From NCBI GenBank assembly GCA_023247415.1, contig JAHFGN010000001.1:10062-74061 (forward strand): 64,000 nucleotides of DNA, read 5' to 3'. This document shows positions 31,301 to 47,352 of this stretch, in pieces. The position numbers were made by a program, and so were the translations under genes. The notes under the pieces were generated by a model. It saw nothing but the letters and a program-made list of their open reading frames with translations, had not been told where the DNA came from and did no database searches. The stretch is from Candidatus Omnitrophota bacterium (GTDB lineage: Bacteria; Omnitrophota; Gorgyraeia; 2-01-FULL-45-10; JAHFGN01). Positions within the stretch are counted from its first letter, which is position 1, and every line of letters starts with the position of its first letter.

Positions 31301-32033
31301 GTATCTGAATGAGCCTGGCAGGCCCGCGCCTGAGGCGCAGGCTGGCGGCCAGACCGCGCCAACAACATCTGACCGAAAATCTACGAGCGGGATAAGGCAG
31401 GGCCTCGCCGCCGGTCCGGCAGTTCGCGCTGCAATGAGCGGAAGGGAAAAGAAAGAGGCGCGGGGGGCTAACATTCCCCAATCCCTAAGCGGCAAGATGG
31501 CTTTGCGCAAGACTCTCTTGACTTTGGTCTCTAAAGAATTGCAAAAAGGGCCTGTCGTGATAGCCACTGACACTGAACTTGTGCCAATTGAGATTGCCCA
31601 GATGGCTGAGAAGGTGACGAAGAGGTACTTAGGCGGCAGCGTGATGCATATAAGAGGCGCTGGTGAGAAGCTTCTTGAAGCTATCAGGGCCAAAGGCCTA
31701 AACCCGAAAGATGTTGTGATAATAGCCGGAGACAACACTGCGGGAGAGGCCCGAAAATTAGGGACTGTCATCCATGTCAAAAATCCGGAAGGAGAGTTCT
31801 TACCTATATTAATAGAGCTCTATGACCTCGCCCTGAAGATACTATATGGCCTGGGCGAGGAGAAGATATTGGAGTCTCTTAAGGGTATCAGCGCGGATAG
31901 ATGTGATGAGGCGGATGTGAAGAGGCTGCTCATTGAAGGCATAATCAGGATTCTGCCGAAGACAATTAAGATATCTGGCGCGGAGAAGCTAGAGGCGTAC
32001 AGCGCGACTCAAGCCGCCCTCCAATCGCTGTAA
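28329..32033 (+). CDS. Giant-family protein (about 1234 aa): TLAP N-domain, histidine-phosphatase (phosphoglycerate-mutase-like) domain, coiled coil, family C-module
   Basis: 'LWYMTHGATDGN' and 'VIIFGHGFYSAA' are branch-1 histidine-phosphatase motifs with a THG core. The C-module is about 70% identical to that of the preceding gene. The annotated 5' end is encoded by a REP element, so the true start is uncertain; an in-frame TTG lies before 'VLVFLLNDLGFASG'. Confidence 0.75.
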   Translation: MSRNFNKFCAAGCQLVGRPLLVLVFLLNDLGFASGHDALAPHYISGLREDDDNGAAVLDARASRVKQEMRAAASGALAEKIRAKLHEKNIPVTSEELEEIVSDNVRSGGLRQAGSGEYTPSPQELGLMDSLGFELADKQGRVRYKRDYKPPELGVDLWYMTHGATDGNKAALLQGSRSDGEQRFYLNEEGHKQAKEGAEKLWNILGVRLMTGEKIVFLTSPISRARQTADHFIKFVEIKSEGKLNIELVPLEILKEVDHGFWDGKKREELPEDEKILAGQNYARNVFVKSQILPGENFLEFIKRVRTAVEFINREYKGKTVIIFGHGFYSAAIKIVLKTQEVDQIIAEKGYIDWSKPLQPHTHERCQPIHFAATAGERKATSGDEIEQFKPVELSPQNIERETPRQLDGLPANTAMLLRVIPKTPQEAQECKDLVELNIGLRPLMTYEGLLKIYTQEALAHRISKGEGSLTILLPFRLKVPGLKGLSELKAVLGIEKTWGMLPDEFQSDFNLLGTRRDTVEVRRRLLTEAFKLLSAGELRLENIAGFPIGLPEKADKEYFANEMKLDPNRLFSETEANEISSRLAAAKAEQEAEKLQEKLQKERDRDAALAAARLDPIIQKAKADLNSMLDELASSSVPPAPDEVEALRGDIAKLSDAEPLDRGNFQQAGASLKGRPDGLRRRIKKLEEKYREEREITDLLLRIIYLIDAKDWPKFLAQDVPNAFSSNILGEYPKLSDRTVERLNQIVHSIHQALHSQHFDDPIIYSTLRTIQAMIVNALAAAGRISESAAQVFCEDNLSTQGDVWVRQRNIWSERLKRRLERGGLVKGGLPPPPPQSILKAMGARGKTGEIASRCLGVFDLLILSSRREQFSEPAARDITLGPFTALYCSMLRIEKADNGAIAGVSDYLKSLYLRVGEVPADIKKGVLLGKAAYLVNLGMVEVSLASMASDHFGAKDFAAEFMDVARGISKWLPKKYPEYKPWYPPLLAAYLNEPGRPAPEAQAGGQTAPTTSDRKSTSGIRQGLAAGPAVRAAMSGREKKEARGANIPQSLSGKMALRKTLLTLVSKELQKGPVVIATDTELVPIEIAQMAEKVTKRYLGGSVMHIRGAGEKLLEAIRAKGLNPKDVVIIAGDNTAGEARKLGTVIHVKNPEGEFLPILIELYDLALKILYGLGEEKILESLKGISADRCDEADVKRLLIEGIIRILPKTIKISGAEKLEAYSATQAALQSL
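28353..28390 (+). repeat. REP element copy (tgtgctgcagggtgccaacttgtgggacgtcccctttt)
   Basis: It is the same roughly 38-bp sequence as the two REPs flanking the RAYT gene. It contains the palindromes ctgcag and ggggacgtcccc. Confidence 0.75.
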
Positions 32034-32035: not shown

Positions 32036-32090
32036 TTTGTGCGGCAGGCACCCTGCCGCAGAGAGCAGGGTGCCTGCACACGGTTAAGAT
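32036..32090. repeat. Degenerate REP-like palindrome (possible REP pair/terminator)
   Basis: 'ttttgtgcggcaggcaccctgccgcagagagcagggtgcctgcacac' shares 'ttttgtgc.gcaggg.gcc' with the REP and folds as a long hairpin. Confidence 0.45.
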
Positions 32091-32113
32091 TGCAAAAATT
32101 TTGTTTTCGACCC

Positions 32114-32167
32114 TTGACAAGTGAAAGAATATCAGTATACTTATGTGGCTTTAAAATTAAAAAAATG
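32114..32167 (+). promoter_or_regulatory. Sigma70-type promoter (TTGACA-16-TATACT) plus conserved leader 'tATGTGGcTTtaaaaTTAAAAAAA' upstream of the 32216 giant gene
   Basis: -35 at 32114-32119 and -10 at 32136-32141. An AAGGAG RBS lies at about 32203-32208. Confidence 0.55.
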
Positions 32168-32215
32168 TTTACAAAGAATATGAGGAAGAAAAACAGCAAA
32201 CATAAGGAGAAGACC

Positions 32216-35200
32216 ATGGTCTCAGGCCGTAGATTATTTTTGAAGGTCATAGCATTAGCATTGGTTCCTACATTTATATCTTCCAGCATCACATTCGCCC
32301 AACCGATTCCGGATAACCGAAGCACGCTCGCTCCGGCATCGAGGACCGACGCCGTTGATGACAGCAACAGGGGTAGGGGGGATGTCCTCACCAATACCGT
32401 CGCGAAAAACTTCACTGATCAATGGTTTGAGGCATACGGCAGTAAGATTGCCAGAAAACTGTTCCTGGCATTGAGCCGGCCCGCAACGCCAGAAGTCGCC
32501 GAGGCTGTAGTCAAACACAATACTATAGGTATGGATGGCAAGACACAGCTTAGGTTCATCAACGCCGTAAAAGCGCGCATTGCGCCAACAACAACAGGCC
32601 TGCGCATGGCAGGGAGCGGAACCAGCCGCACTGCAACAAACGGCGAGACTGTCACGCCTCCGGGGAATATAAAACTGCTTGTTGCTCGAAATAAAGAGGC
32701 GATGGCGCGAGAGATGGCGGAGAGGATCGTGGTTAAAGTTCGTGAGGCAAACAGGGCGGGCCAACGGATGACGCTTGGTCTTGCAACAGGCGGCACGATG
32801 GAGCGCGTATATGAGCTCGTAGTTGAGATAACGAAAAACGAGAGACTCGACTGGTCTGGGGTCGTCACATTTAACCTCGATGAATATAAAGGTCTTTTGT
32901 CTACCCATAAACAGAGCTACAGGGCTTTCATGGATAAGCATCTATTCACCCCCCTCGTTCAATTTGGACTTAAGATTGAGGATACACATGTCTTTGACGG
33001 CACAGCGAGTGTTCCAGATGATGAGCTTCGTAAATTCCTTGGCATGATAAAACGACATGGCGGCGTAGACCTGCAGATCTTAGGCATCGGAAGCGACGGC
33101 CACTATGCATTCCACGAACCAGCAGTGGTAGTGGATGATGCCATGGCGAGCGCTATTTATAACGGTGAGCTCTCTCCAGAACAGACCGAAAAGGTTGGCG
33201 GATTCAACGAATTCATCATAACAGGTAAAGATCTTGCAGCGAAAAGCAATGCGATACAACGTGTAATACATGCCAAGTCAGTTTGGCTGACAGCGCTGGA
33301 GAGTAATGAAAGTATTCTCGCCAAAGTTAAAGAAGCGTGGACAAAGGAGAAAAGAGAGGTAAATGAAGCGGATATAAGAGGACAGCTGCGGCAGTTAGGC
33401 AAAAAACTGCTTCTTGGACAAACTCTTCATTTCTACATCGACGGATTGGATAAGGAAGCAAAGAAAAATCTTCTTTCTCACATAAGCTCGGACGAATTGT
33501 ACCGTATGTCATACGTGGGGAGAGTCGAATTGCATGATGCAAAAGAGTTCTTTGACAGCAAAGCAAAGGTCGTTGACCTTGCCCTCTCCACTATAATAGA
33601 CAATTCGCGGTACTTCCCGAGCCTGCTCGATGTGCCGACCCAGGCCTATACGCTGACAGGCGTTGTAAGAGAGGCAAAAGAGATATTGCTGGCCGCAAGC
33701 GGAGAAAACAAGGCCGAGGCAATAGCCGGCGCGCTCGGCAAGACCATATCACAGGAGGTCACATCGAGCATCCTGCAGACCCACCCAAATACGACCTTTA
33801 TCATCGCTGAAGACGCGCTCACCAAGGTGCCGTCCGAGGTAGTGACGAAAGCCGATAAAAATCGTGTCTTCGCCTCAGCCGCCCGCTCCGCGCTGAGCGG
33901 ATATACGCGAGAGGACGCGAAGCGAGAGGTGCCGGTAGCATTTGCCGAGCATCGCGCTTTTTGTATTGGGGAGCCGATAGTTGAGAATGAGTTGGGGATG
34001 TATATCCCGAGCTTTAATAAATGGACAGAATCTGATGTGAAGGCGTTTGAAGAGACGCTCAAAGATCTGCCCAATCTTGAAGGTATAGGTATAGACGGCG
34101 ATGGGAAGGCTGCTCTTACTATCAAGAAGGAGAAGTTTATATCCGACAGCCAGGTCCTGACCGGATTGATCAAATTTTTGTTTGACTGGGCCCAAAAGAG
34201 GGAAGAACGGGAAAAGAGCGAAGCGGTTTCGAATAACGAGGTGCTCGCGGCGTTTAAAGATCTGGTAAATTCGATCGCGCTTATAAGGACGAGCATCGGC
34301 TCGATGGCAAAGCCCGAGATAGAAGAAGATTCCGCCGCCAAACGATATGTCCTCGTCCTGGACGATACGCAGGCGCCTGCTACTGTGGACCAGCTCAAGA
34401 AAGAGGCCCGCCTGACAGCCATGTTCACAGGCATTGAGCCTCCTATACATTATGAATACGGCAGGGGTACTCCATGGGTAGGATTTACAGGATCGCATGC
34501 GGGCGCGGCGTCAATCTACACCAGCGTCGCGAGAACGAAGCAGTATGTTAAATTGATCGAGGAAGCGGTAAGGGACGGCCACAGCCAATATGCAGAATTG
34601 TTAAAGATGGCCTTTATCCAGTCGCTTAGCGGCAATATGGAAGCGAAAAACAAGATAGTTGAAACTATCATCGTCGCGGAACATGAAAATGATAATAAAA
34701 AAGCGCTTGAGAAGATAAAGGCGGAGGATAAGGACCGCTTCACCGAGACATTCGTATCCGTGGACCTGTCCAGGGCGCTTGGCCAACTCGCGCAGATACC
34801 GGAAGCGATCGCCAAGTCAGCCGAAAATTATCTCCTCACAGCGATTGACAAAGGCGAGATAAATGATTTTGTCGTAAAGAGATTTGGAGAGCTCCTGATA
34901 TTCGACGTGACGCATAACAATCCTATATACGACATCCACCTTCGGGCTCAAGAGATTATAGCCGCATCCATCAGAGAGGCGTTTGCTGAAGTGATAAGGC
35001 TTGGCTATTACAAGATTGAGCAAGAAAAGATAGATTTCACCAAGGCCAGCCTTCAGGAATTGGCGAAGGCGCTTGACTGGAATACGGATGAAATAAGATA
35101 TACGAAAGGACAGAGTAATAAACGAAAGTCCCAGCCCACCATGCGCCAGTTCATATTCGGCGCTGACGAGCGCGCGTTCAACAGTATCCTGTTCAACCTC

Positions 35201-38104
35201 TATGGTTCACCGAATATTACGACTATGCAGGCTATTGAAGGAAGCGCGGGCATCTATTTCAAGAATCAGAAGGTGGCTGACCTGCGCCGGGATTCATTTA
35301 CGCGGCTTGTAAGAGGAGAGGCGCTTGACACTACAGGAAGGAACGAGATCGCCCAGCATCTTCCGCGAGAGCTGTTTAAATTGGTAAACCTCAATAAAGG
35401 TCCGGACCCTGATTTTGGATCGGATTCAGGGTATGCGACCAAGGCCATCTACTCCGGTAAAGAGTCGCGTTTCCCGCAAGATGAGCCGATGGTAGTCGTC
35501 ATGAATCTGGGCAAGGTGCAGGTCGCTGTATACCAATCGCAGGCCGGCGCTGAGGCTGTGGGCGGAATCCTCGGGGTGGGCGTTAAAGAACAGAGCGTTG
35601 ATGGTCTGGGAGGCGACCGGCAGGACTTGCGTCCCGTTACATGGGAAGAGGCCGCTTCTCAAACGTTGGATTCGCTAAAGGGGCGAAAGATCGCGCCCAC
35701 CACATTCACCGCGAGCCAGATGAACCGCGGAAGATTCGGCGAGGTGATCGATCCTGTTAAGGAGAGCCCGGAGTTTCGCGTAAGAAATCTCGCCAGGAAG
35801 GTGAAGGGCGAAATAGATTTTGAGGAAGTTTACAGGGCGCACTGGCCGATCCAGCCGGGCACCAATGCCGTCACAGCGGAGGATATATCGGCAAAGGCGT
35901 GGAATGAACTGAAGGAACAGGGCAGCGCCGAAGAAGATGTTGTTTCAATCATTTACGGCAAGCTCAAGAAAGAAAAGCGCGTCAAGATGATAAGGCGCTG
36001 GAAAGACGCCAGCGAGAACCGCGAGGAATTCACCATGAGCGTGTTCAAGGCCGATATAGGCAGTTCCCTTGGCCATACGATCCCGCCAAAGCTCCTCATG
36101 ACCCTGATAAGGGCGTATCTGGAATACGCGAAGGCCAAGGGCTGGATACAGGATTACCTTGTTCAAAAAGAGCTTCCCATGTTCAGGGTTGGAGACGATA
36201 TAGAGATAGTCATATCGCACAAGAAAGGCATTGAGGACAGCGATATACACAGGCTCGCGGTCCGCGCCTTCTACTTCGCGCTCTACTTCGCCGATGCCGC
36301 GAAACGCGACGAATATTACGGGTTTGGGCAGGACCTGCCGCTCGATGTCGACTACTTCCTGGCCTTTGCCAAGATCTATACGGGCGAGGATCAGCAGAAT
36401 ACGGAAAGTTTCGTAGTAGATAAAAGCATAACATCTTTAATGGAAGACTATGTCAAACCCAGAGTGGAAGCATTGTCGCGGGAAGACAGGTATACTATCA
36501 CACAAGCTGAAATCAGCGCCGTATATAACCATTTCAATAACGCATATATGGAATTAAAAACAGACGTATATCAGTCCAAGAAAGAGACTAAGATCGCGGC
36601 TGGGGCAACCGGCAACGTCAGCGGTTCCGGTATAGGTTTCGCTGAGCTAAGCCGCGCTAAGCTCGCGCCGGGCAGGTCCTACACATTCTTCGCGTTCGAC
36701 AAGGCCAGCCCAGGCGCATTCTCCTTACCTTATTATGAGGCTGCCTTGGTCGCTTTGAGGGCCGGAGATTATGATAACCTCAGCTTTGAGGTGGAAGTTG
36801 TGAAGCCGCTTGATAAGCATGAAATTGGGCAGAAGATTATGCTCATAGATGTCGCGGAACAGCCGGAGCTTCTAAAAAATGTCCTTTCTTCAGTGAACGA
36901 CTTCCAGATAAAGGCTGTATGGACAAAGGACCGGGATGGTTCATTCAGGATGGTAGCCGCGAATTCCACGGAACGGCTATATCAGTCTGAGAAGGCTCAT
37001 GGCGCGTATCTTGGCAAGGACGACCCAGCCGCCATGATGGAACAGGCATTCGCGAACCGCGTCATCGAATGGATGGCCGCGAATCCTTATATAATTCAGG
37101 GTGACGAGCGTGGATCTCATATGGCGTTTGTCCTGCTCACATCAGCAACACAGTCCTCCCCCGGCACATTCAGCATACCTGTGGCTGTGGCTGTCTCCTT
37201 TACGCTGGGGCTGAACGGGGAGCTTAGAGATATAATAGACGTATTCGGAGCCCCCAAGTTTGAATTGCCCATGGCTAAAGCTGTGGCGGCCAATGAGCTT
37301 TATATCGAAAGGCATGGTAATAACGCGAATCGCGGCGAGATAGGGCTAATCGAAGAGTCATATCCCGGCCGCAGGCTGCACAGGAAGATACTCAAAGACG
37401 CTAACCCCGCTCTTTCTATAGGCGAGATCATGGCCGAACGCGGCCGTCAGGCAGCGAGCGGCGGGGCCAACGAAGCCGTCGCCGGCGGCTGGCTGTATGA
37501 TAAGGTTACTGTTCCTGATGCTGAAAATTTAGGTGATACCCTGCGCGTTATCAAGGCCTCCAGCGTGTTGAATAAGGAAACGGACAATCGCGTGCTGATC
37601 CTGGCCCTGCCCAATGAGGTGGTGCCAAGCGATATGGCGGTGAAGTTTGGACAATTGGCGGATCGCTATCTTGGAACAGGCGCGGTCCAGATTATCCGCG
37701 CGAACCAGGATTCGCTCTACGGAAAAGCCGTCTCAATAGCGGGACAGGTAAAGCAAGCCGGGAAAGAGGCCATAGTCGTATCTATGGTAAGCGCCGGAGC
37801 CGGCGAAAGCGTTGTCAATGACCTGGCGAGGTTAGGCAAGGTCATGAAGATAGCGGATGGAAGCTTTGTCTCTCCGGGCTTCGTGGACCTGGCCCTTCGA
37901 ATAGCGTATGGCACGCAGGGAGAGGTCCTCGCTTGCCTGAACAGGATAGCGACTCATGAGAAGGGGTTGGCGTTCAGCGAAGAGGATATCGCGCGTGTCT
38001 TCAAGGGCCTTGTGATCATACTGCCGAGAGCAGGTTCAGTTGACCTCAAGACAGCCCGGGAAGCCTACACCGCGGCGAAAAAGTACATCGATACATCGCT
38101 GTAA
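32216..38104 (+). CDS. Giant-family protein (about 1962 aa): signal peptide, TLAP N-domain, glucosamine-6-phosphate deaminase (NagB)-like domain, family C-module
   Basis: ATG 32216 is preceded by AAGGAG. The leader is 'MVSGRRLFLKVIALALVPTFISSSITFAQP...STLAPASR'. 'LGLATGGT...VVTFNLDEYKGL...ILGIGSDGHYAFHEP' matches NagB catalytic motifs. The ORF-track start at 32039 lies in a palindromic repeat upstream of the promoter. Confidence 0.75.
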   Translation: MVSGRRLFLKVIALALVPTFISSSITFAQPIPDNRSTLAPASRTDAVDDSNRGRGDVLTNTVAKNFTDQWFEAYGSKIARKLFLALSRPATPEVAEAVVKHNTIGMDGKTQLRFINAVKARIAPTTTGLRMAGSGTSRTATNGETVTPPGNIKLLVARNKEAMAREMAERIVVKVREANRAGQRMTLGLATGGTMERVYELVVEITKNERLDWSGVVTFNLDEYKGLLSTHKQSYRAFMDKHLFTPLVQFGLKIEDTHVFDGTASVPDDELRKFLGMIKRHGGVDLQILGIGSDGHYAFHEPAVVVDDAMASAIYNGELSPEQTEKVGGFNEFIITGKDLAAKSNAIQRVIHAKSVWLTALESNESILAKVKEAWTKEKREVNEADIRGQLRQLGKKLLLGQTLHFYIDGLDKEAKKNLLSHISSDELYRMSYVGRVELHDAKEFFDSKAKVVDLALSTIIDNSRYFPSLLDVPTQAYTLTGVVREAKEILLAASGENKAEAIAGALGKTISQEVTSSILQTHPNTTFIIAEDALTKVPSEVVTKADKNRVFASAARSALSGYTREDAKREVPVAFAEHRAFCIGEPIVENELGMYIPSFNKWTESDVKAFEETLKDLPNLEGIGIDGDGKAALTIKKEKFISDSQVLTGLIKFLFDWAQKREEREKSEAVSNNEVLAAFKDLVNSIALIRTSIGSMAKPEIEEDSAAKRYVLVLDDTQAPATVDQLKKEARLTAMFTGIEPPIHYEYGRGTPWVGFTGSHAGAASIYTSVARTKQYVKLIEEAVRDGHSQYAELLKMAFIQSLSGNMEAKNKIVETIIVAEHENDNKKALEKIKAEDKDRFTETFVSVDLSRALGQLAQIPEAIAKSAENYLLTAIDKGEINDFVVKRFGELLIFDVTHNNPIYDIHLRAQEIIAASIREAFAEVIRLGYYKIEQEKIDFTKASLQELAKALDWNTDEIRYTKGQSNKRKSQPTMRQFIFGADERAFNSILFNLYGSPNITTMQAIEGSAGIYFKNQKVADLRRDSFTRLVRGEALDTTGRNEIAQHLPRELFKLVNLNKGPDPDFGSDSGYATKAIYSGKESRFPQDEPMVVVMNLGKVQVAVYQSQAGAEAVGGILGVGVKEQSVDGLGGDRQDLRPVTWEEAASQTLDSLKGRKIAPTTFTASQMNRGRFGEVIDPVKESPEFRVRNLARKVKGEIDFEEVYRAHWPIQPGTNAVTAEDISAKAWNELKEQGSAEEDVVSIIYGKLKKEKRVKMIRRWKDASENREEFTMSVFKADIGSSLGHTIPPKLLMTLIRAYLEYAKAKGWIQDYLVQKELPMFRVGDDIEIVISHKKGIEDSDIHRLAVRAFYFALYFADAAKRDEYYGFGQDLPLDVDYFLAFAKIYTGEDQQNTESFVVDKSITSLMEDYVKPRVEALSREDRYTITQAEISAVYNHFNNAYMELKTDVYQSKKETKIAAGATGNVSGSGIGFAELSRAKLAPGRSYTFFAFDKASPGAFSLPYYEAALVALRAGDYDNLSFEVEVVKPLDKHEIGQKIMLIDVAEQPELLKNVLSSVNDFQIKAVWTKDRDGSFRMVAANSTERLYQSEKAHGAYLGKDDPAAMMEQAFANRVIEWMAANPYIIQGDERGSHMAFVLLTSATQSSPGTFSIPVAVAVSFTLGLNGELRDIIDVFGAPKFELPMAKAVAANELYIERHGNNANRGEIGLIEESYPGRRLHRKILKDANPALSIGEIMAERGRQAASGGANEAVAGGWLYDKVTVPDAENLGDTLRVIKASSVLNKETDNRVLILALPNEVVPSDMAVKFGQLADRYLGTGAVQIIRANQDSLYGKAVSIAGQVKQAGKEAIVVSMVSAGAGESVVNDLARLGKVMKIADGSFVSPGFVDLALRIAYGTQGEVLACLNRIATHEKGLAFSEEDIARVFKGLVIILPRAGSVDLKTAREAYTAAKKYIDTSL

Positions 38105-38159: not shown

Positions 38160-40931
38160 ATGAAAATACAACATCCAAAACATATGCAAAAGACGATATC
38201 GATATTGTTGATACTGACATTCCTTCCCTATAATCTAGCATTTGCGCTCGCGCCGTCTTATGTCTCCAGGCCTTTCGGCAAAGAGGACCCGCGGAGCGCC
38301 AAGCAGGCCGAGATATTAGCGACGGCAAAGAAGGCTCTGGCAGTCAAGATGGAGCGGCGTTTGTACGAGCTGCAGAAAAAGACCGCGCCTCAAGATTATC
38401 TGCCCGCGGGACTTCGTCTGGCCGCAAGCGGCGGCTCGAATGGCGGGAATGTCGCAGGGCCGTTTACGCTGAAGGAAGCGAAAGAAGCAATCAATGTCAT
38501 AAATGTTGTTAAGAGTAGGACTGCAGCCGCGCCCCGCGGCTCGAAGGCAGGCGGCGCTCCAGGTTCTGCTAAGGCTGGCGTTTCGCCTGAAGAGGCATTG
38601 AAGGCGATGGCAGATGAGTATCTGGACCGATTTAGGCAATATATGTTAACTCTCCACCCCGTCACTCGTAACATACTTATAAAAAAGAGAACGGCGATGA
38701 TAAGACAGGCCTTGAAATGCGCAAACGATGATCCAAGGGATGCGCTTACACTACTGCAAAATAGTTTGAGCGAATGTGAAATGTGGGAAAAGCTGCGAGA
38801 GGTTTCGCTGATGCAAACAGAAAGAAAAGAAGTAGAGGCCTCTATCCGGGAGATGGCAGCGCAGAATGAGGCAGCTGGAGACCAGACCGCAGTTACAATC
38901 CTCGGCGAAGACGGCAAGGCCATAACTGGTCAGAACAGGCAGGCCCAGGCCGGCCGCGACGCGAGGGGCGGCGGAACGCCTGAAGCGGCGACTGGGTCTA
39001 ATATCGTGCTCCTACAATACCCGTCCAAGCCGACACTGGATGCATATTTTGATGCCCGTTCTGGAGGCGATGGAGAAACATTGAAAAAGGCGAGGGACAA
39101 GGCGGCAAAACAGGCAGTTGCCGCAACATCTAAATTGGATCCAACAGGCAGGCAAGCTCTGTCATTAGTATTGAATCTTATGGAGCAGAGAGGGTGGGAC
39201 GTCAATCAGGACCGCCGTGAATTCGAAGCGCTAAGCAGTAGAATTGACTATTGGACCAATAAGTTTTCGCCTAAGTCTCAACAAGCAAAAAAGATTGTCC
39301 CCGCTAATAGAAGAGAGCTGATAAAAGCAGCCAAAGATAGCGGGTTTCCTGATAATATCAGGCAGGATTTTGAGCGCAAGCAGCGTGGTATACAGCTTCT
39401 ACAGGTGAGGCAATTGAGGGATGGTGAGGTCGTGTTGATATATTCTACCGGATATCCAGTGATGGAGAATATGGCAAGTGGTAGTTTCACGACTATTTGC
39501 TACACACTGCTTCATTCAGATGGAAAATATCATATGCTTCCGGTCAGCTATCACAATACCAGCAAAGGGCTGGAGGCATCCATAGACTTAGATGATGTGG
39601 TGGAGGGTATTAAATATCGCGATCTCATAATAAGGAGCAGGTTGTTGGCCGGCACAGAAGAGCCGTTATTATGGAAAGCGCTTGGGAGTGCGGCCGATAT
39701 AGTTGATATGGCTGTCAGACAAAATGTTCAATTAGGTGAATCGCCATCCCCTGAAATAGTCCGCGGCTCAAAGGCCGGCATTGCCGCGCTGCCTGCCGCG
39801 CCGGTCGTCTCGCCGGCAGGGAGATTCGCGGATGGATACAAGACCTGGGGGGAGGTGCCGGGGATAAATGTATTTACCTTCTATCCGCGGGAAGGGGAGA
39901 GAGTTTATGTCATGTTCTTGAGCGACGCTGAAAGGAATGACCCTACTCTCCCCTCGCATGGCAGAGCGGATTTCAGTAACGGCCAGTTCGCGGCATATGT
40001 GATGCAAAAAGACATCGTGCATTCGGCTCAAAGAGTACCGATGCCTGAGGTTTGCAATAAAGTTATCGCGTTCCTAAAAAATGCGACAACAGGAAGCAAA
40101 GACTTATATGCGCGCAGGACAGTAGAACATGAATATGTAATAGGTTCAACGAAAATTGGGGAGATCGCGGCCATCTTCGCTGAAAAAGGAAAGATAACCG
40201 TAACCTTCGGCGATAGACAGGAGGAATTCTCCGACACTGCCGCCGCAGCCCAGGTTCGCGAGGCCAATAGCGGAATCGCGGAGCGCAATATCGCTGTGGA
40301 TTGGAGAAGCTATCACGAAGCCCGGGCGGCTGAATTCAGATCCGGGCTTATTCGCACGTTGACTGAACATCCTGATAAAGAATTTGTCCTGGCTGTTGAT
40401 ACTGACATCGGAGGCGCGCATAAGGCTCAAATCATGCCGATATGGAATGCGTTCGATGATATCAGAAAGCTCGCCTACAAAGACGGCAAGCCGCTATTTC
40501 CGAATCTGTCAATAATAAGGGGGGCCGGCCTCACCCTCGCGTCGAAGATAGCTAGAGCCAGAAACGAGAAGAGTGTTGACTTAGGCAGTATCTTCGTCGT
40601 CGCCAAAAAGGCCAATGTTGACAATAGGGCCTTTGAGCCGCTTACAGGGGCGTGGATAGCCGCGATAGACGATTCAGCGGCCGGCGAAGGCGTCTACATG
40701 CCTGTATTTGAGGCCGCGACAATCACGATGATGGCCGCGCTGAATGTCGATTCGGCCGCCATCAAGACGTTCTGCGACTCTATAACCGACAAGCCGATAG
40801 ACCCTAAAGCCATAGACGAATTTAAACGCGGCAGGATCCTGTATCTGATGCCGAGGGCAGCGAGATTCGACACAGAAAAAGCCCTCCGCGACGTCTACGA
40901 ACTCGCGAGGATTACGTATACAGCGGCGTAA
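38160..40931 (+). CDS. Giant-family protein (923 aa) with family leader and C-module but no recognisable enzyme domain
   Basis: The leader is 'MQKTISILLILTFLPYNLAFALAPSYVSRP'. The C-terminus 'RILYLMPRAARFDTEKALRDVYELARITYTAA' matches the family C-module signature. Confidence 0.65.
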   Translation: MKIQHPKHMQKTISILLILTFLPYNLAFALAPSYVSRPFGKEDPRSAKQAEILATAKKALAVKMERRLYELQKKTAPQDYLPAGLRLAASGGSNGGNVAGPFTLKEAKEAINVINVVKSRTAAAPRGSKAGGAPGSAKAGVSPEEALKAMADEYLDRFRQYMLTLHPVTRNILIKKRTAMIRQALKCANDDPRDALTLLQNSLSECEMWEKLREVSLMQTERKEVEASIREMAAQNEAAGDQTAVTILGEDGKAITGQNRQAQAGRDARGGGTPEAATGSNIVLLQYPSKPTLDAYFDARSGGDGETLKKARDKAAKQAVAATSKLDPTGRQALSLVLNLMEQRGWDVNQDRREFEALSSRIDYWTNKFSPKSQQAKKIVPANRRELIKAAKDSGFPDNIRQDFERKQRGIQLLQVRQLRDGEVVLIYSTGYPVMENMASGSFTTICYTLLHSDGKYHMLPVSYHNTSKGLEASIDLDDVVEGIKYRDLIIRSRLLAGTEEPLLWKALGSAADIVDMAVRQNVQLGESPSPEIVRGSKAGIAALPAAPVVSPAGRFADGYKTWGEVPGINVFTFYPREGERVYVMFLSDAERNDPTLPSHGRADFSNGQFAAYVMQKDIVHSAQRVPMPEVCNKVIAFLKNATTGSKDLYARRTVEHEYVIGSTKIGEIAAIFAEKGKITVTFGDRQEEFSDTAAAAQVREANSGIAERNIAVDWRSYHEARAAEFRSGLIRTLTEHPDKEFVLAVDTDIGGAHKAQIMPIWNAFDDIRKLAYKDGKPLFPNLSIIRGAGLTLASKIARARNEKSVDLGSIFVVAKKANVDNRAFEPLTGAWIAAIDDSAAGEGVYMPVFEAATITMMAALNVDSAAIKTFCDSITDKPIDPKAIDEFKRGRILYLMPRAARFDTEKALRDVYELARITYTAA

Positions 40932-41037: not shown

Positions 41038-44000
41038 ATGCGTTCGCATTTCACGCTCAAAATCATCTCGCTCGTATTAATCCCCACTTTCCTCTTCTCA
41101 AACCTGACATTCGCGCAAGGCCCGGACCAGGAGAATAAAAATACCCGGACATTAGCGCCCCATTCCATATTCAAGCTTCGCGACAGCGGCAAGAATGGAA
41201 ACGCGAATCTCGACGAACGCGCGGAGCGTGTCTGGGCCGATATGCGGAAGACAACTGCCAGAAGCCTCGCCGGAAAAATGGCAAGACGCCTCGCCGAGAT
41301 GCGGGAGCGCGGGATCAGCGTCACAGCCCAGGCCGGCCAGGAGATATTAGCCAACCAGATTAATGTTTTGTCCAGAAGGAACGGCGTATTGCCGGACGCA
41401 AAACTGATCAGGGCGGTAGGGGAGCGCCTCGCTGCGAGCGGAACCGAAACAGCAGAGAGGGCTGGATTTATCGCGCAGCGCGTGGCTGTCGTAGGGGATT
41501 CCGAGCGGACGCGCCTTGTGATCCCGGAATTGGTGAAGAACGGGATAGTTGTCGCGGCGTGGGCCGCAGATACGCCGCCGTCTAAGAGGTTGAATTTTAT
41601 GGCGAGGAGCGCGACACACGATGTATACGGCCCAAAATATATCACCATCATCGGCGATATGGCAAGGGAGAATATCGTCTTGAAGATAGGCCAGCAAAGC
41701 ACGCATATACGTCCGCTTGTCTTTAGACCGGGCAGGGGGACTAAATCTTCCAATAAGTTGATAGAAGTCCTGGCTGGCATGCAGGTGGATACAGTAGTTT
41801 TAGACAGCCCGGGATTAGTTGACGAGGAAGAACTTGTTAAGAGGGGAATCCACGTTGTAGTGATGGACAAAGAGGCGGAGCCGGACAGCAAGGTTGTGCC
41901 AATCGCCGCTATCGCGAATCAGGCGGCGTTTCATATTGGTCAAGCCTTCCGGGAATTGGCCCAGAAGCAGAAGAAAGTCGCCGAGGTTCAATTTGCCCAA
42001 TTAAAGGTGATAGAGCCCAATGGCTCATCTTTCCCGGCCACCCACAGCAATCGAAGCGCGGCTGAACCCAATGTGACGCAGACCAAAGATTATCAGAAAG
42101 AGCTGCGTGAAGGATTGGGCATCTCTGGCGAAGACGGCGCCCGCGTTCTGGAGACTATCCGATTTGGCTACCCCATCCCCGAGGGGCTCATCATAAACGC
42201 CACAATAGCGATGAATCGCGATGTCGATGCCAACGAAGTGCGGGCCCATCTCATCGATTTGGCTAAACGCGACGGCTTTTTTAAAATTCTGGAGGATGAT
42301 CCCCTGACCAATACGAGGCGTGTGGTGGCTGATTCAGGCGTCCAGCTTTACAGCGAGCCGCTTGTTCAGACGACTGACGACGGACGAAGCCTGATCCAGG
42401 TGAGCTTTATCGCGGATCCTCTTACCACACAGGTCGAGCAATTAGTTCAGATACTGCAGGGCAAAAACCGCCCGCGTATTTCAGACGCTATTATACAATA
42501 CGAGGAGATACGCGCGGAGATAGAGACGCCGCCTCAAGAAGCTCAACTCGCGGATGCCCTCAAGACAGACCTGGCTAATAATGAGGTAGCGAAACTCGCG
42601 GAGAGGTTCAAAAGAAGATGGGGTGTCACAGAGACCAAGAGGCTGCTTCGCAAAAAGGAGATTGAACCGGAAGATGCTGCCTTCATCCTCTTTGGCAGGA
42701 AAAAGGAGGATTTTACCTCATTCGAATTTTTAGAAGACGCCGCTCATAACCGCATCGGGCTTATGGCCATTTCAGGGAGCGGAGATATCTGGGCCACAAC
42801 GCTCCTTACCCCTGTTGAGCCCGAACAGGTCGCGCCTCTGCAGAAGAATTATTATGACGCCCTCCGTCAGCATGCCATGCGGAAAATATATAGCCGGGTG
42901 CGCGATGTCTATCATCCGGCAGAACGGCTGTCCTGCGTATGGCAGATCGAGTCAGAAAATAGATTCATTCTACGAGAGGTTCTGCAGGTTCAGCCAGATG
43001 GCGCGGATAAGGTCTTATCGCGTCCAATGACGGCATTTAACCCGTTTGCGGCCGACGAGTTAGGCGTCTTCGTGAATGGCGCAGGCGGCCGCATTGGAAG
43101 CGAGGTAGCGCGCATCATAGCCGGAGATGAGATAGATCCGAAGGAAGGCCTTGCGCCGCGGCTCTCCGGGAAACTTGTCCTCATAGGCCTTGGGGTATCT
43201 GATTTTGAAGAAGAGAATGGAAGAGTGTGGGGCGGTGAAGGGTTTGTCAGGCTTATACGACAGGGGGAAGACCTTTCGAGCGGGCCTTTTAGCGGCAAGG
43301 TCAGGCATGGCCATGAAGATGGCAGGGGAGAGGATTGGGTTGAACTGACAGATAAGAGAGGAAAGACAGTCAGGGTCCCTGTATTCAGCGATCTGATATT
43401 CAGAAACCCTGAGAATTATCCGCTCGTCTCATTCCTGTTCGCAGGCGTGCCCATAGCGGCTCTAGATGGGACAGGACTGAAGGAACTTACTGAGCGTTCA
43501 GGTTTAAGCAAGTATTTGTGGGCAGGGGCTGACCGCGTAACACTTCCAAACCCGGGGGCCTCCCAAGAGGACCATTGGAAGACCCATACCTTTATATACG
43601 GCGTCAATGACAAGGAATTTCATGCGACGAAGAAGATGACCTCAACAGCCTCCTGCACTACAGCCGCGGCAGCGACTCTGGCCAAGAAGATCCTGCGCGT
43701 GGCAGCCTGCGTCCTTGCCGGCGCGGAGCTTCCAGACCACCTGAAGGATGAATATATGAATCAGGCAGCAGGCATACTGCTGACAGGCCATCCATACACA
43801 CGCGATGAAGTGCTTGGCGATGAGGGCAATTACGATATGAGTGCGAAGAATCAATCTAGACAGGTCGCAAAAGGCGCCGCATACGGCGGTCCCACTGGCG
43901 CGGCGAAGACAGCGTCTCTGGTGCTTCCGGAGGTGAAGGCAACGGGCGAGGCGATTCGGGGGCCATGGCTTACCGGCTCTGTGTTAAGCTATGTGATGGA

Positions 44001-47000
44001 TGTGCCGGGCCATTTGAAATTAGAAGATTTGCTGCGTCTCCTTAAAGAAGACGAAGCCGTAAAAAGCGGCAGGGGACGCGCCCCTGCGTTCAAGCTCGCC
44101 AAAGGCGTGTCGAGCTCCGCCCATATCCGGCGCGCATCTGGAGAACTTGCCGCCTACAGCGCTGTGCTCGATGAGACCCATATACAGATTGTTCATACAA
44201 AAGACAACTTCGGCAGGCCCAGGTCAATAATATCCACCCTGGCATGGTATGAGAATGAGTGGGGATTTTCTGTTGGGGTCGCGCGGTTCCTCGATGATGT
44301 GGTGCGGCCAGGCTCAGCGCTTGAGGCGCAGCCGGATTTGAGGCTCGATAGATTTCCAGAAAGACTCTCCGCTATTCCAGAGGAGGAGAACGCAAGGGAA
44401 GAGGGCGCGCTCTATTCTGACCGCGTCTATTTGGACCAGATGAGCGAAGTAGAGTTAGAGAGGATTTTTAAAGACAAAACCGTGTTTGTGAAGGCGGATT
44501 ACAATATAGTGCAGCCTGTATCTAAGGATAAAGGCGGCGGCAAATTTGAAGATGAGGCAGAGATAATAGAAGACTTCCGGATTCTCGCGACCCTTTCTGA
44601 TATACAGCGCCTGCGCAAGGCAGGGGCTAAGATAGTCTTGGCTTCGCATAACGGCAGGTTCAGAGACATCGTGAAGAATAGGGCAGGATACACGCTTGAG
44701 CCTGTCGCAAAGCGCCTCTCCGAGCTCTTGGGTATAGAGGTGAAGTTCTCTCCCGAGACTGTAGGCCAGAATGCCATGGACAAGGTTGATTCGCTAAAGG
44801 AGGGGGATGTCCTCCTGCTTGAAAATCTAAGGAATAACCCTGCGGAAGAGGACGGCAGCCCAGGATACGCGGAGGAGATTGCTGAGACGGTGAGGCCGGA
44901 TGCCTACGTGTTCCTCGCCTTCGGAGCAGCCCATCGCGGAAAACACGCCTCCATAAGCCCGCTGATAGATTATCTTCGAGCGAAGCGTCCCGGCATACCT
45001 GTAATCGGAGGAGGGATTATCCGCAAAGAGCTGGAAGGGCTAAAGAAGTTTCTTACCCACAACAAAGAGGAGGAGACATCTGTCGCGATTCTTGGCGGCG
45101 CGAAGATAGAGGATAAGATAGAGGTGATGCGGAAGCTGATATCGAACAGGATGATTGACAAGATCGCTGTTGTCGGCGCGATGTCGTTCTATTTTTACCT
45201 CGCCAAAGGATACAGCGTCGGCAACTCATTCTTAGATGACAATATTCAGGATGCGGTGAGGTCGACTCAGCTGGCATTCGAGATCATGCTCCTGGCAGAA
45301 GAGAACGGTGTGGAGATTGTGCTGCCTAAAGGTTACCGGGGCCTCTTGCATCGTTCCATCGACAAGACAAAACCCGTTCATATAAAAGACGGCGAGCTAA
45401 AGAGGTTTCCGATGGGAAAAGAGGGCCTGCCCCCAGAGTTCTATGCCTACAGCGTGGATCAGGATACGGTTGATGAAATTGTCAAGATGTGCAAACAGGC
45501 GATGTGGATTATTGTCAATGGGACAGCAGGGGTGGTGGAGATCGATGCCTTTCGATATGAGAACGATCTCATCCTGCATGCTGTGCATAATGAGGTGGAT
45601 TTGTTACCTGGGACAAGAGCGGTGATATTGGGAGGGGACGGTGTCGCGGCATTTAGTAGATGGGCGGAGAATAGATGGGGAGAAGAATATCTCGCTAAAG
45701 TCCAGGATACGGGATACACGCTCTCGACAGGCGGCGGCGCCAGCCTGGAGTTCTTATCGCGTCTGGTCTTGAGCGGTCTTGAGCCCTTGGATTTTAAGGT
45801 CCGGAAGCGAGGCGCGAGGGGGAAGACAGGAAAGATCGGCCTTTATGGAAATCTCAAGCGGCGTATCCACACTCAAGAAGGCCTTCGAAACCATCTCAAG
45901 GATATCGTCGCAAGCGCCAGGGCAGTCGAAGGGGTAGACAATATCGAGGTCGTCATATTCGTCCCCTCTGACCTTGCCAATGATAAAGAGCTGGTCGAAA
46001 TCGTAAAGGGCTCGCCTGTTAAACTCGGTGTTCAGAATATAAGGCTTGAAAGCGAAGAAGACAGTCCTGAACTGACTGCTGAAGAGGCGAAGGCCCTCGG
46101 CTTTACGCATGTCATGATAGGCCATTCAGATATGAGAAGCGGCTCGCTCACGTTGGACCGCAGGCCGCAGACGAATCAGGATGTCAATGCGCGGTTGCGC
46201 GCAACCCTCAAAGCCGGGCTCATCCCGCTGTTTCTGTTTGGGGAGACCCTCGATGCGCGTTTGAGGGAGATCGCGGATTCAAACCAGAGATGGAAGTTCA
46301 TCGATAAGCAGCTGCGCGAAGGGATGGAAGGCGTGGCAGGAGAAGAGGCCGGCAATATCCTATTTGGTTTAGAGCCTGTTTGGGCCATAGGAAAACAGGC
46401 TGCCAGCCCATTTTACGCCAATGTCCAGCTTAGGCATGCGCGTAGGGTTCTGGCAGACATCTTTGGGGAAGGGACAGCCAGGCAGCTTGCCCTGGGCTAT
46501 GGCGGCGGCACAAATGAACGGAATATAATCTCCTACATCTCCGGCGAGAGTGATCTGGTGGTCCCTGGCCGGCCTTCTGCTGATGCCAGGTCTTTTTCAG
46601 AGATGATTACGCAGACAGTAAGATTTTCCAAGGAGCATTGCGCGGGCCGTTCGTCCACGAACGGCAGCAGACCAGCGCGCGACTCGACAAACGGGCTGTC
46701 TGCTGAAGCGATAAAGGAGCAATCGACCGTGCCTGATACCGAGGCATTGAAAAAGCTTCTCGTGTCGCTTGGGTTGTATGCGAAGGAGACTGAACGCGGC
46801 GCTGTCATAGTCGCGTTTGATACCGGCATCTTCCCTGTCAATGTCTCATCTGTGCTGAAGGCCGGTAAAGACGGCATAAACCGCTATCTTGAAGGCAAGG
46901 TTATTGATATACGGGCCCAAGGCCCTGATCTTCTCACTAAGATACAAGATGAGATAGGCCGGCTGAAAGGCGCTGGCATACCATTGGCCGGAGTGGTTGC

Positions 47001-47352
47001 AATAGCCGGCGACGCTACGGTTGAGGCTATGCGCAGCCAGCCGTTAGAACTGGAGGCAGGCAAAGTAGCAGTTATAAATGTCCAGAAGCCTGAGAATAGA
47101 TACATACCGGTAATAGGCCTATACGACCTCGCGTTGAGGATAGTATATAATCCTGATGATAAGCCTGCCATTCTCGAGTGCCTGAAGCAAATAGCCTTAA
47201 ATCCGGATAACAAGCCGTTTGGGTTGGATGATGTTGAGGAGTTGTTAAAGAGCCGCATCATCAGGATACTGCCGAAGATAATACCGATGGATATGGACTT
47301 AACAATCCGCGAGGCCTACAGAGCCGCGCAGGCCGCCCTCACCGCGCTGTAA
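41038..47352 (+). CDS. Giant-family protein (2104 aa): signal peptide, TLAP N-domain, contiguous GAPDH-like, phosphoglycerate kinase and triosephosphate isomerase domains, family C-module
   Basis: 'VFVNGAGGRIGSEVARI', 'STASCTT' and 'WYENEWGFSVGVARFLDDV' are GAPDH motifs. 'LASHNGRF', 'AILGGAKIEDKIEVM' and 'TGGGASLEFL' are PGK motifs. 'GNLK', 'VMIGHSDMR', 'FLFGETL', 'EPVWAIGKQ' and 'LGYGGGT' are TIM motifs. The C-terminus is 'RIIRILPKIIPMDMDLTIREAYRAAQAALTAL'. Confidence 0.85.
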   Translation: MRSHFTLKIISLVLIPTFLFSNLTFAQGPDQENKNTRTLAPHSIFKLRDSGKNGNANLDERAERVWADMRKTTARSLAGKMARRLAEMRERGISVTAQAGQEILANQINVLSRRNGVLPDAKLIRAVGERLAASGTETAERAGFIAQRVAVVGDSERTRLVIPELVKNGIVVAAWAADTPPSKRLNFMARSATHDVYGPKYITIIGDMARENIVLKIGQQSTHIRPLVFRPGRGTKSSNKLIEVLAGMQVDTVVLDSPGLVDEEELVKRGIHVVVMDKEAEPDSKVVPIAAIANQAAFHIGQAFRELAQKQKKVAEVQFAQLKVIEPNGSSFPATHSNRSAAEPNVTQTKDYQKELREGLGISGEDGARVLETIRFGYPIPEGLIINATIAMNRDVDANEVRAHLIDLAKRDGFFKILEDDPLTNTRRVVADSGVQLYSEPLVQTTDDGRSLIQVSFIADPLTTQVEQLVQILQGKNRPRISDAIIQYEEIRAEIETPPQEAQLADALKTDLANNEVAKLAERFKRRWGVTETKRLLRKKEIEPEDAAFILFGRKKEDFTSFEFLEDAAHNRIGLMAISGSGDIWATTLLTPVEPEQVAPLQKNYYDALRQHAMRKIYSRVRDVYHPAERLSCVWQIESENRFILREVLQVQPDGADKVLSRPMTAFNPFAADELGVFVNGAGGRIGSEVARIIAGDEIDPKEGLAPRLSGKLVLIGLGVSDFEEENGRVWGGEGFVRLIRQGEDLSSGPFSGKVRHGHEDGRGEDWVELTDKRGKTVRVPVFSDLIFRNPENYPLVSFLFAGVPIAALDGTGLKELTERSGLSKYLWAGADRVTLPNPGASQEDHWKTHTFIYGVNDKEFHATKKMTSTASCTTAAAATLAKKILRVAACVLAGAELPDHLKDEYMNQAAGILLTGHPYTRDEVLGDEGNYDMSAKNQSRQVAKGAAYGGPTGAAKTASLVLPEVKATGEAIRGPWLTGSVLSYVMDVPGHLKLEDLLRLLKEDEAVKSGRGRAPAFKLAKGVSSSAHIRRASGELAAYSAVLDETHIQIVHTKDNFGRPRSIISTLAWYENEWGFSVGVARFLDDVVRPGSALEAQPDLRLDRFPERLSAIPEEENAREEGALYSDRVYLDQMSEVELERIFKDKTVFVKADYNIVQPVSKDKGGGKFEDEAEIIEDFRILATLSDIQRLRKAGAKIVLASHNGRFRDIVKNRAGYTLEPVAKRLSELLGIEVKFSPETVGQNAMDKVDSLKEGDVLLLENLRNNPAEEDGSPGYAEEIAETVRPDAYVFLAFGAAHRGKHASISPLIDYLRAKRPGIPVIGGGIIRKELEGLKKFLTHNKEEETSVAILGGAKIEDKIEVMRKLISNRMIDKIAVVGAMSFYFYLAKGYSVGNSFLDDNIQDAVRSTQLAFEIMLLAEENGVEIVLPKGYRGLLHRSIDKTKPVHIKDGELKRFPMGKEGLPPEFYAYSVDQDTVDEIVKMCKQAMWIIVNGTAGVVEIDAFRYENDLILHAVHNEVDLLPGTRAVILGGDGVAAFSRWAENRWGEEYLAKVQDTGYTLSTGGGASLEFLSRLVLSGLEPLDFKVRKRGARGKTGKIGLYGNLKRRIHTQEGLRNHLKDIVASARAVEGVDNIEVVIFVPSDLANDKELVEIVKGSPVKLGVQNIRLESEEDSPELTAEEAKALGFTHVMIGHSDMRSGSLTLDRRPQTNQDVNARLRATLKAGLIPLFLFGETLDARLREIADSNQRWKFIDKQLREGMEGVAGEEAGNILFGLEPVWAIGKQAASPFYANVQLRHARRVLADIFGEGTARQLALGYGGGTNERNIISYISGESDLVVPGRPSADARSFSEMITQTVRFSKEHCAGRSSTNGSRPARDSTNGLSAEAIKEQSTVPDTEALKKLLVSLGLYAKETERGAVIVAFDTGIFPVNVSSVLKAGKDGINRYLEGKVIDIRAQGPDLLTKIQDEIGRLKGAGIPLAGVVAIAGDATVEAMRSQPLELEAGKVAVINVQKPENRYIPVIGLYDLALRIVYNPDDKPAILECLKQIALNPDNKPFGLDDVEELLKSRIIRILPKIIPMDMDLTIREAYRAAQAALTAL

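Follow-up and report, generated by a model that had tools for sequence, protein, structure and literature searches.

A single uninterrupted open reading frame (ORF) from a Candidatus Omnitrophota bacterium encodes a genuine single-polypeptide fusion of a type-I-like glyceraldehyde-3-phosphate dehydrogenase (GAPDH), a phosphoglycerate kinase (PGK) and a triosephosphate isomerase (TIM), all in one frame. The gene lies in a 64,000-nucleotide stretch of contig JAHFGN010000001.1 (assembly GCA_023247415.1, forward-strand positions 10,062 to 74,061), which we refer to as the window, and its 2104-aa product is called P0001 (Table 1). Textbooks describe glycolysis as a cytoplasmic pathway whose enzymes are soluble and separate. 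In P0001, the substrate-level-phosphorylation core of that pathway (TIM, GAPDH and PGK) lies in one chain with a predicted export signal and a putative C-terminal handle, beside carriers for most of the other sugar-phosphate steps; the arrangement raises the question of whether Omnitrophota cells run sugar breakdown outside the cytoplasm.

The modules of P0001 follow one another in the order leader, LAP/helical spacer, region A, α+β domain, GAPDH-like domain, PGK, TIM and C-terminal module (C-module). A preliminary description of the window had claimed a contiguous GAPDH-PGK-TIM fusion inside a 2104-aa protein, and hidden Markov model (HMM) matches, structure alignments and a motif table bear this out; every motif that it quoted is present in P0001. 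The coordinates that it gave for the trio, 43060-46560 (aa 675-1841), locate the three domains correctly but stop short of the end of TIM, which lies at about aa 1863 (nt 46626).

Enzyme domains and support for the gene

Pfam recognised both C-terminal enzyme domains of the trio. PF00162 (PGK) matched aa 1144-1574 with 233 bits against a cut-off of 27 (E=7e-69, model positions 6-377 of 379), and PF00121 (TIM) matched aa 1604-1858 with 77.5 bits against a cut-off of 20.1 (E=1.5e-21). The best solved-structure matches of the two segments were the Thermotoga maritima enzymes, PGK 1vpe (E=3e-46) and TIM 1b9b (E=6e-22), and the NCBIfam model for the bifunctional PGK/TIM protein (NF010569/PRK13962) spanned aa 1144-1857 with 335.8 bits, covering model positions 11-641 of 645. 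The PGK segment retains the motifs EDFRI, SHNGRF (1203), LLENLR, FGAAHR, LGGAKIEDKI, LGGAKIEDKIEV (1352), NGTAGVVE, LGGDG and STGGGASLE (1563), with minor changes from WNGPxGxFE to VNGTAGVVE and from GGGD[ST] to LGGDG.

The GAPDH-like domain is a divergent homolog and no equivalog. Type-I GAPDH model TIGR01534 matched aa 789-1080 with 84.4 bits (E=8e-24, model positions 79-327), and Pfam Gp_dh_C (PF02800) matched aa 912-1019 with a marginal but significant 28.1 bits against a cut-off of 24.4. Comparison of the segment with solved GAPDH structures gave E=1.4e-15, and a local GAPDH profile scored it at 68-77 bits. Its motifs include NGAGGRIG (680), the Cys in TASCTT (870-875), HPYTRDE (918), PTGAAK (952), AIRGPW (972) and WYENEWGFS (1070).

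The ATG of P0001 has a Shine-Dalgarno-like GAAGGA 7-12 nt upstream, and an identical protein is encoded on a 194,841-nt contig of ENA ERZ27297570 and in Logan SRR14366766 (locus L001), which are independent assemblies. The single ortholog found, P0002 (2223 aa, Logan SRR22388205), comes from another sample; it is 53% identical and collinear from the leader to the C-terminus, and it has a matching, uninterrupted architecture in which the linkers between domains are kept. The gap-pgk-tpiA operon is widespread in bacteria as separate genes with cytoplasmic products, and the same order of domains in P0001 suggests an origin by gene fusion. While this common order might lead one to suspect a chimeric contig or frameshift errors that merged a gap-pgk-tpi operon into a long ORF, and while one locus that seemed to cross a GAPDH-PGK junction (L008) proved, unlike P0001, to be an ordinary unfused gap/pgk operon of two separate genes in two frames, the identical protein on independent assemblies and the uninterrupted ortholog with conserved linkers effectively refute an artefact, which we consider extremely improbable.

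Further searches returned no other protein of this architecture. With full-length P0001 as the query, a word-indexed search of 5.8 billion proteins matched P0001 itself and P0002 only, and a query of the same collection with the PGK domain retrieved ordinary stand-alone PGKs of about 400 aa at 33-37% identity, the nearest to that of P0001, and no further fusions. An alignment of P0001 and P0002 retrieved no ortholog from genome contigs (GTDB representatives), where the match was one ordinary Rhodobacteraceae GAPDH, and no new fusion from a metagenome scan, which yielded five ordinary GAPDH loci and L008.

Residues required for catalysis are kept in both orthologs. Equivalents of GAPDH Cys149, His176 and the phosphate-site residues (Thr179, TGAAK and Arg231) are present, as are the PGK 3-phosphoglycerate (3-PG) patch (Arg38, His62, Arg65, Arg122 and Arg170), the PGK nucleotide and transfer residues (Lys219, Asn336, Glu343, Asp374 and the GGG loop), and the TIM catalytic Lys (GNLK; YGNLK at 1603), His (GHSDMR, 1695) and Glu (EPVWAIGKQ, 1779). 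Both P0001 and P0002 have all 19 of the catalytic or binding motifs checked. Conservation is highest in the enzyme domains (50-68% identity, vs 23-26% in the C-module), which argues for constraint on the enzymes. GAPDH and PGK activity is likely on these grounds; TIM activity is plausible, and it or its substrate specificity is uncertain because the phosphate loops are non-canonical. The motifs had initially been called intact, which holds for the catalytic residues but not for the whole active-site architecture, as the NAD-binding half goes unrecognised by Pfam and TIM loops 6, 7 and 8 are altered (see below).

Leader, C-module and the Omnitrophota carrier family

The N-terminus of P0001 had been proposed to be a signal peptide, and by rule it fits a predicted Sec type-I leader. 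It has a positive n-region, a hydrophobic core of 12-15 aa with a Pro, T-F-A before the likely site and then an acidic stretch. It is also the most hydrophobic 15-mer of P0001, and no other transmembrane (TM)-like segment is found in the 2104 aa. Further along the chain, region A is probably a degenerate second module of the GAPDH/ASADH superfamily without the catalytic Cys, and could act as an intramolecular pseudo-subunit upstream of the intact GAPDH-like domain.

P0001 belongs to a large Omnitrophota family and is one of six or seven neighbouring giant enzyme-carrier genes, a context absent from the preliminary description. A profile of the C-module, searched against 1.84 billion representative proteins, gave 258 matches (clusters), 169 of them below 1e-10, and the family therefore comprises at least 258 clusters; the C-module alignment had one match in the word-indexed search. 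The module always lies at the extreme C-terminus, the largest member has 3815 aa, and every member carrying an NCBI name is assigned to Candidatus Omnitrophota; the window's own proteins are singletons. Among full-length members (at least 700 aa), 75 of 93 have an N-terminal hydrophobic leader. In these leaders the n-region is net positive in 97%, A/G/S stands at -1 and A/V/S at -3, and an acidic stretch follows the site, which is the classical pattern of a Sec signal peptide.

The C-module has no relative in Pfam, NCBIfam or PDB, and is predicted by modelling to be a confidently folded, autonomous three-layer α/β domain. That of P0001 is 35-44% identical to the modules of its genomic neighbours, vs 26% to that of P0002, and a second subtype (w38160, P0033, P0040, P0100 and P0052) shows 43-73% identity across unrelated cargos. 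The module thus does not track cargo orthology. A generic handle that binds a shared partner, or other copies of itself, would be expected to show such independence, which suggests a role in docking, anchoring or sorting.

Many members carry a further domain of about 210 aa after the leader (LAPSLVSDxDINPxRS…EPGAIGNGxPL…YLLGFN…HECVPE…DRDDHR) with an invariant His/Glu/His cluster (P0053, P0069, P0107, P0113 and others). This N-domain has no Pfam or PDB relatives; it is present in P0002 (aa 25-270) and largely lost from P0001. The largest members have a second N-terminal type (…TTDPEKIVIPRDYGLVKSKYxG…IQDAHCNYEAQ).

A Pfam census of 29 members found mainly sugar-phosphate enzymes: PGM/PMM, TIM, GAPDH, FBPase_3, GPI, PGK, PFK, inositol-phosphatase/FBPase, GlpX, ROK, UDPGP and transaldolase. 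Dockerin, TSP3, C39-peptidase and SecA-like domains were found neither in this census nor in the window giants. P0040 (locus L010, 4-5592) combines TIM (260 bits), GAPDH (128+192 bits), an unannotated block, FBP aldolase/phosphatase and the C-module, and its enzymes score as canonical; the gene begins at a contig edge, and its N-terminus is probably incomplete. Tandem arrays of the family also occur on contigs L011 and L015. The latter (JGI Ga0598270_0000168, 68 kb) has four consecutive giants: one of 2618 aa (HATPase_c, hexokinase, HEAT and DUF218), one of 3278 aa (B12-binding radical SAM, DegT aminotransferase and HAD), one of 2793 aa (CofD and C-module) and a further truncated gene.

In the window, P0001 is the last of six giant plus-strand ORFs in a row, separated by gaps of 5-234 nt. 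All six share the leader K-I-I-S-L-x-L-I-P-T-F-x-S-x-x-x-F-A followed by '(T/A)LAP', and five have the C-module; neither leader nor C-module was detected in the giant gene further upstream (162..9332). The homolog P0100 of array gene 1 (393 bits), which is named as an Omnitrophota protein, does have a C-module. Although all enzyme domains across the array are highly divergent, their assignments, with P0001 included, can be read as leading from amino-sugar or hexose entry to 3-PG and 2-PG, plus glycogen metabolism. The aldolase-like domain of array gene 2 (aa 901-1133) is of the class-I, tagatose-bisphosphate type.

Several details of the individual genes were also recorded. The unannotated block of array gene 2 (aa 1143-1627, nt 25785-27239, about 480 aa) has no Pfam or PDB sequence relative and matches P0077, P0143, P0060, P0121, P0124, P0009 and P0105 at 240-390 bits. 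The block of array gene 4 (aa 715-1330) has no PDB sequence relative. For array gene 4, the listed GTG start (32039) is probably wrong: the public gene call is 1996 aa, and an ATG near nt 32216, after AAGGAG, puts the shared leader at the N-terminus. Array gene 5 contains repeated 'GSKAG' strings.

Table 1. Positions of the modules and motifs of P0001 and of the other giant genes in the window
Feature	Residues or length (aa)	Position (nt)	Strand	Remarks
Whole gene P0001	2104	41038..47352	+	Uninterrupted ORF
N-terminal leader	1-26	41038..41115	+	MRSHFTLKIISLVLIPTFLFSNLTFA↓QG; predicted Sec type-I signal peptide, rule-based
'LAP' motif (TLAPHS)	39-41	41152..41160	+	Common to window paralogs; start of family motif LAPSLVSDxDINPxRS
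RxAASG site 1 (RLAASG)	130-135	41425..41442	+	Directly before cargo
Region A	136-485	41443..42492	+	AIANQAA where canonical GAPDH has SNASCTTN
α+β domain, function unassigned	486-672	42493..43053	+	Conserved in P0002; pLDDT about 60-84 for aa ~535-672
GAPDH-like domain	673-1095	43054..44322	+	HMMs, solved-GAPDH matches, local GAPDH profile, motifs; several insertions
PGK domain	1144-1590	44467..45807	+	Pfam, 1vpe alignment, motif table
TIM domain	1598-1863	45829..46626	+	Pfam, 1b9b and 7rmn alignment, motif table
Two RxAASG sites (RSSTNG, RDSTNG)	1871 and 1881	46648..46695	+	Between TIM and C-module
C-terminal module	1897-2104	46726..47349	+	~190-aa predicted three-layer α/β, closing amphipathic helix (…IIRILPK…EAYRAAQAALTAL); 254.8 bits
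Upstream giant gene	3056	162..9332	+	NagB-like, PIG-L/BshB-like deacetylase, ROK kinase; four RxAASG motifs
Array gene 1	1058	18948..22124	+	Leader and LAP, glycogen/starch-synthase-like (GT5) cargo; C-module not detected
Array gene 2	1985	22359..28316	+	Leader and LAP, PFK, aldolase-like, unannotated block, HEAT repeats, C-module subtype A
Array gene 3	1234	28329..32033	+	Leader and LAP, histidine-phosphatase (PGAM-like) domain, C-module subtype A
Array gene 4	2021 (ORF)	32039..38104	+	Leader and LAP, NagB-like deaminase, unannotated block, FBP aldolase/phosphatase (about aa 1331-1761), C-module subtype A
Array gene 5	923	38160..40931	+	Leader and LAP, no recognisable cargo, C-module subtype B

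Proposed activity, location and processing of the fusion

We favour, with moderate confidence, the reading that P0001 is an exported Omnitrophota carrier whose triose-phosphate tri-enzyme cargo is active, and that it forms part of a co-targeted sugar-phosphate pathway array. The tri-enzyme module would convert dihydroxyacetone phosphate (DHAP) to glyceraldehyde 3-phosphate (GAP), 1,3-bisphosphoglycerate (1,3-BPG) and 3-PG with a gain of NADH and ATP, or run in reverse, and with GAPDH adjoining PGK the labile 1,3-BPG could be handed over locally. The block would be the cargo of a modular carrier formed by the Sec-type leader with its LAP motif and the C-terminal α/β module. The leader would direct the carriers across or into the inner membrane, and the interchangeable C-module may serve as a generic handle for assembly, anchoring or sorting. 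The operon-like array, with five or six carriers and one related giant gene, would encode the co-targeted pathway, the predicted cargos being ROK kinase, deacetylase and NagB-like (amino-sugar entry), PFK, aldolase, FBP aldolase/phosphatase, the tri-enzyme, PGAM-like and glycogen-synthase-like domains. The sequence data show the ORF, its domain identities, the kept catalytic residues, the family with its taxonomy, the array and the motif statistics, and from them we infer catalytic activity, export, the handle role of the C-module and processing at the motifs described below.

A number of observations weigh against this proposal. The exact architecture is known from two sequences, and the conservation statistics drawn from this pair are thin. 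Scores fall far below the NCBIfam equivalog cut-offs (84 vs 367 bits for GAPDH, 336 vs 883 for PGK/TIM and 77 vs 293 for TIM). The Pfam model for the NAD-binding half of GAPDH (Gp_dh_N, PF00044) gives no match in P0001, and the glycine-rich motif NGAGGRIG has one extra residue compared with NGFGRIGR; it aligns in register to the local GAPDH profile, at a level that is not significant by itself, and model positions ~30-95 are not alignable. In TIM, the phosphate-gripper loops 6, 7 and 8 read AIGK(Q/E), YGGG and PGR(P/T)(S/A), vs the near-universal AIGTG, YGGS and GGAS, and loop 6 is short by one residue. The signal-peptide call is a fit of the leader to pattern rules. The C-module is without an informative structural relative, and its function is deduced from position and evolutionary behaviour only. 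Finally, the export of NAD+- and ADP-dependent enzymes to the periplasm or surface is bioenergetically odd.

The pattern R-x-[AS]-[ASTGN]-[SN]-G, abbreviated RxAASG, was counted in the seven window giant proteins and occurs 20 times vs about 0.3 expected, with Arg at -2 in 20 of the 25 occurrences of the core (P=4e-20); it is absent from the 20 normal-sized proteins of the window (7,454 residues). The sites mark domain boundaries; those of P0001 flank the segment that runs from region A to TIM, and none separates GAPDH, PGK and TIM. The most economical reading is that RxAASG is probably a processing site, since A-x-S↓G would fit the -3/-1 rule of signal peptidase I; the alternative is a modification site.

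This enriched motif at domain boundaries, with its likely fit to signal peptidase I, also suits an explanation in which the giants are polyprotein precursors, cut at RxAASG sites and perhaps elsewhere into free enzymes so that the fusion is transient. West-Roberts et al. (2023, preprint) propose post-translational cleavage of Omnitrophota giant proteins. However, the stretches that join GAPDH, PGK and TIM, and the one from region A to GAPDH, are free of the motif, and the block of aa 136-1870 would stay fused even if the protein were cut. P0002 has no RxAASG motifs, a point against precursor cleavage and also against the favoured reading, and the motif is rare in the wider family, so that it appears to be lineage-specific. 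Pfam and NCBIfam scans detected no protease domain in P0001. We regard release of free enzymes as possible but doubtful, and processing as such is compatible with the tri-enzyme block remaining fused. In the proposed carrier, the motifs bracketing the cargo would be probable processing or modification sites that leave the block whole.

The domains might instead be non-catalytic and give a secreted or surface protein modules for adhesion, structure or the binding of sugar phosphates or nucleotides, much like the moonlighting surface glycolytic enzymes of other bacteria. The low scores relative to the equivalog cut-offs, the NAD-binding half that Pfam does not recognise and the three altered TIM loops point in this direction, as does region A, apparently a GAPDH-type module whose catalytic Cys is already gone; the predicted extracytoplasmic site would also be without ATP and NAD. 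Yet the GAPDH Cys/His, the full PGK Arg/His/Lys/Asp/Glu set and the TIM Lys/His/Glu are kept in orthologs that differ at 47% of positions, and no part of the protein is better conserved than the enzyme domains. Enzymes with canonical scores occur in relatives such as P0040, and the whole array forms a coherent pathway. For these reasons we think a scaffold of pseudo-enzymes unlikely.

An ATP and NAD+ supply would be no difficulty if P0001 were part of a membrane-tethered metabolon in the cytoplasm, with the hydrophobic N-terminus an uncleaved anchor or a segment unused for export. Two preprints lend this some weight: West-Roberts et al. (2023) warn that predictions of where such domains reside may be wrong, and in a 2026 preprint (10.64898/2026.06.07.730766) 46% of the long Omnitrophota proteins are predicted to have a TM anchor and their bulk in the cytoplasm. 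In P0001, however, the positive n-region, short Pro-containing core, AxA-type site and acidic stretch predict an N-in/C-out orientation and cleavage, and there is no second TM segment to return the bulk of the protein inside. We consider a cytoplasmic location of this kind quite unlikely.

If the carriers are exported and active, as we favour, P0001 would offer a concrete, clonable test case of about 190 kDa. It would make extracytoplasmic or host-directed energy metabolism testable in a phylum of suspected predators and epibionts, along with 1,3-BPG channelling and a new protein sorting or assembly module. A bolder extension, which we hold to be speculative and rather unlikely, is that part of glycolysis, a stretch that yields ATP and NADH, takes place in Omnitrophota beyond the cytoplasm (in the periplasm, at the surface or at prey/host contacts) by means of Sec-exported carriers that dock through the C-module. 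Were this true, bacteria would have an equivalent of compartmentalised glycolysis (glycosome-like, or 'exo-glycolysis') with the GAPDH-PGK-TIM protein as its energy-conserving core, and the sugar phosphates, ADP and NAD+ that it uses could come from host cells that have been lysed or tapped. Should P0001 prove cytoplasmic or inactive, it would nonetheless delimit a large, so far uncharacterised Omnitrophota family of at least 258 clusters, along with two new domains and a new boundary motif. The family helps explain how the phylum's 'multi-enzyme' giants of 10-147 kaa (thousand aa) may arise from smaller units.

Known systems and genomic surroundings

PGK-TIM fusions are known in Thermotoga, as had been stated at the outset, and a 2020 review of PGK confirms this and lists no GAPDH-PGK-TIM fusion. 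No such triple fusion was reported in the literature searched, where PGK-TIM (Thermotoga) and TPI-GAPDH (stramenopiles) are described. In the Thermotoga protein (fus product; PRK13962), as in P0001, PGK is followed directly by TIM in one chain, and the T. maritima structures 1vpe and 1b9b are the best matches. P0001 differs in its score against that model, in the GAPDH-like domain before PGK, in the leader, the degenerate GAPDH-like module and the C-module, and in the altered TIM loops. The stramenopile TPI-GAPDH fusions carry mitochondrial targeting signals (PMC3527533). They resemble P0001 in joining triose-phosphate enzymes to an N-terminal targeting peptide, which in stramenopiles moves part of glycolysis to another compartment, but they are eukaryotic, have TPI before GAPDH, lack PGK and a C-terminal module, and use another targeting system. 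P0040, with its order TIM-GAPDH-…-FBPA/P, is nearer to the stramenopile arrangement than P0001 is.

The general phenomenon of sugar-metabolism domains in signal-peptide-bearing Omnitrophota giants is on record in two preprints. The 'Archaeovorins' of Omnitrophota, predicted to be extracellular, contain TIM, GPI, FBPase, PGM/PMM, aldolase, GT5 and HEAT domains according to West-Roberts et al. (2023). In the 2026 preprint (10.64898/2026.06.07.730766), proteins that are 10 kaa or longer and contain a sugar-metabolism Pfam module are termed 'multi-enzyme metabolic clusters'; a signal peptide or TM helices are present in 94% of them. It also reports GAPDH and PGK at strict thresholds, which P0001 with its divergence would probably fail, in 176 of 176 complete Omnitrophota genomes; this suggests that the divergent carrier-borne copies may be an additional set.

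The giants share with the carrier family their phylum, a domain repertoire (GT5 starch synthase, PGM/PMM, ROK, hexokinase, GPI, FBPase, TIM and HEAT), frequent signal peptides and clustered genes. Sugar-metabolism domains and HEAT repeats on signal-peptide-bearing polypeptides, an Archaeovorin trait, are thus found in the window giants and the family. Archaeovorins have 10,000 aa or more, and 'giant genes' 30,000 or more; at 2104 aa, P0001 falls short of both. The published giants range from at least 10 up to 147 kaa, and many of them contain dockerins, TSP3 repeats or large numbers of TM helices; the carriers, in contrast, measure 0.9-3.8 kaa, have a signal peptide only and bear one to a few enzymes each, with a common leader and C-module that the two preprints do not describe. 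Neither the trio nor PGK is mentioned among the giant-protein domains in the passages covered of the West-Roberts 2023 and 2026 preprints. The fusion had been called highly unusual, which stands in that no such trio was found in the literature searched, but needs tempering because the two preprints already note glycolytic domains in signal-peptide-bearing Omnitrophota giant proteins. Within that literature and those passages, the trio, the mid-size leader/C-module family, the pathway-forming tandem arrays, the independence of the C-module and the RxAASG motif are not on record.

In working principle, and by analogy only, the carriers resemble cellulosomal dockerin-bearing enzymes and the cargo of the type IX secretion system (T9SS), which likewise have an N-terminal Sec signal, variable cargo and a shared C-terminal domain (CTD) that evolves independently. 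The folds differ, since the C-module is modelled as a three-layer α/β sandwich whereas dockerin is an EF-hand pair and the T9SS CTD a β-sandwich. The carriers bear central metabolism of a cytoplasmic type, vs glycoside hydrolases and proteases in the dockerin and T9SS systems, and their partner or machinery is putative.

The genes flanking the array are ordinary housekeeping genes (ilv/leu, aro, TopA, DprA and an XerC/D-type recombinase). The window also encodes a Kdo transferase, from which we take the organism to be diderm. An Rfam search of the window gave no match. Between the upstream giant gene and the array (9469-13443) lie a hypothetical gene with an AbiEii toxin (type IV toxin-antitoxin), a TatD-radical SAM fusion (457 aa) and a protease. 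The last (12361-13443), an intramembrane protease of the Rce1/CPBP type, is a conceivable processing enzyme, with no link to the array. Directly downstream of the array is an IS200/Y1-type transposase gene (47394-48002, minus strand), one of very few genes on that strand. Nearly all genes of the window lie on the plus strand, and GC skew is positive in every 2-kb bin with a monotonic rise of the cumulative skew, which is consistent with the leading strand of a single replichore.

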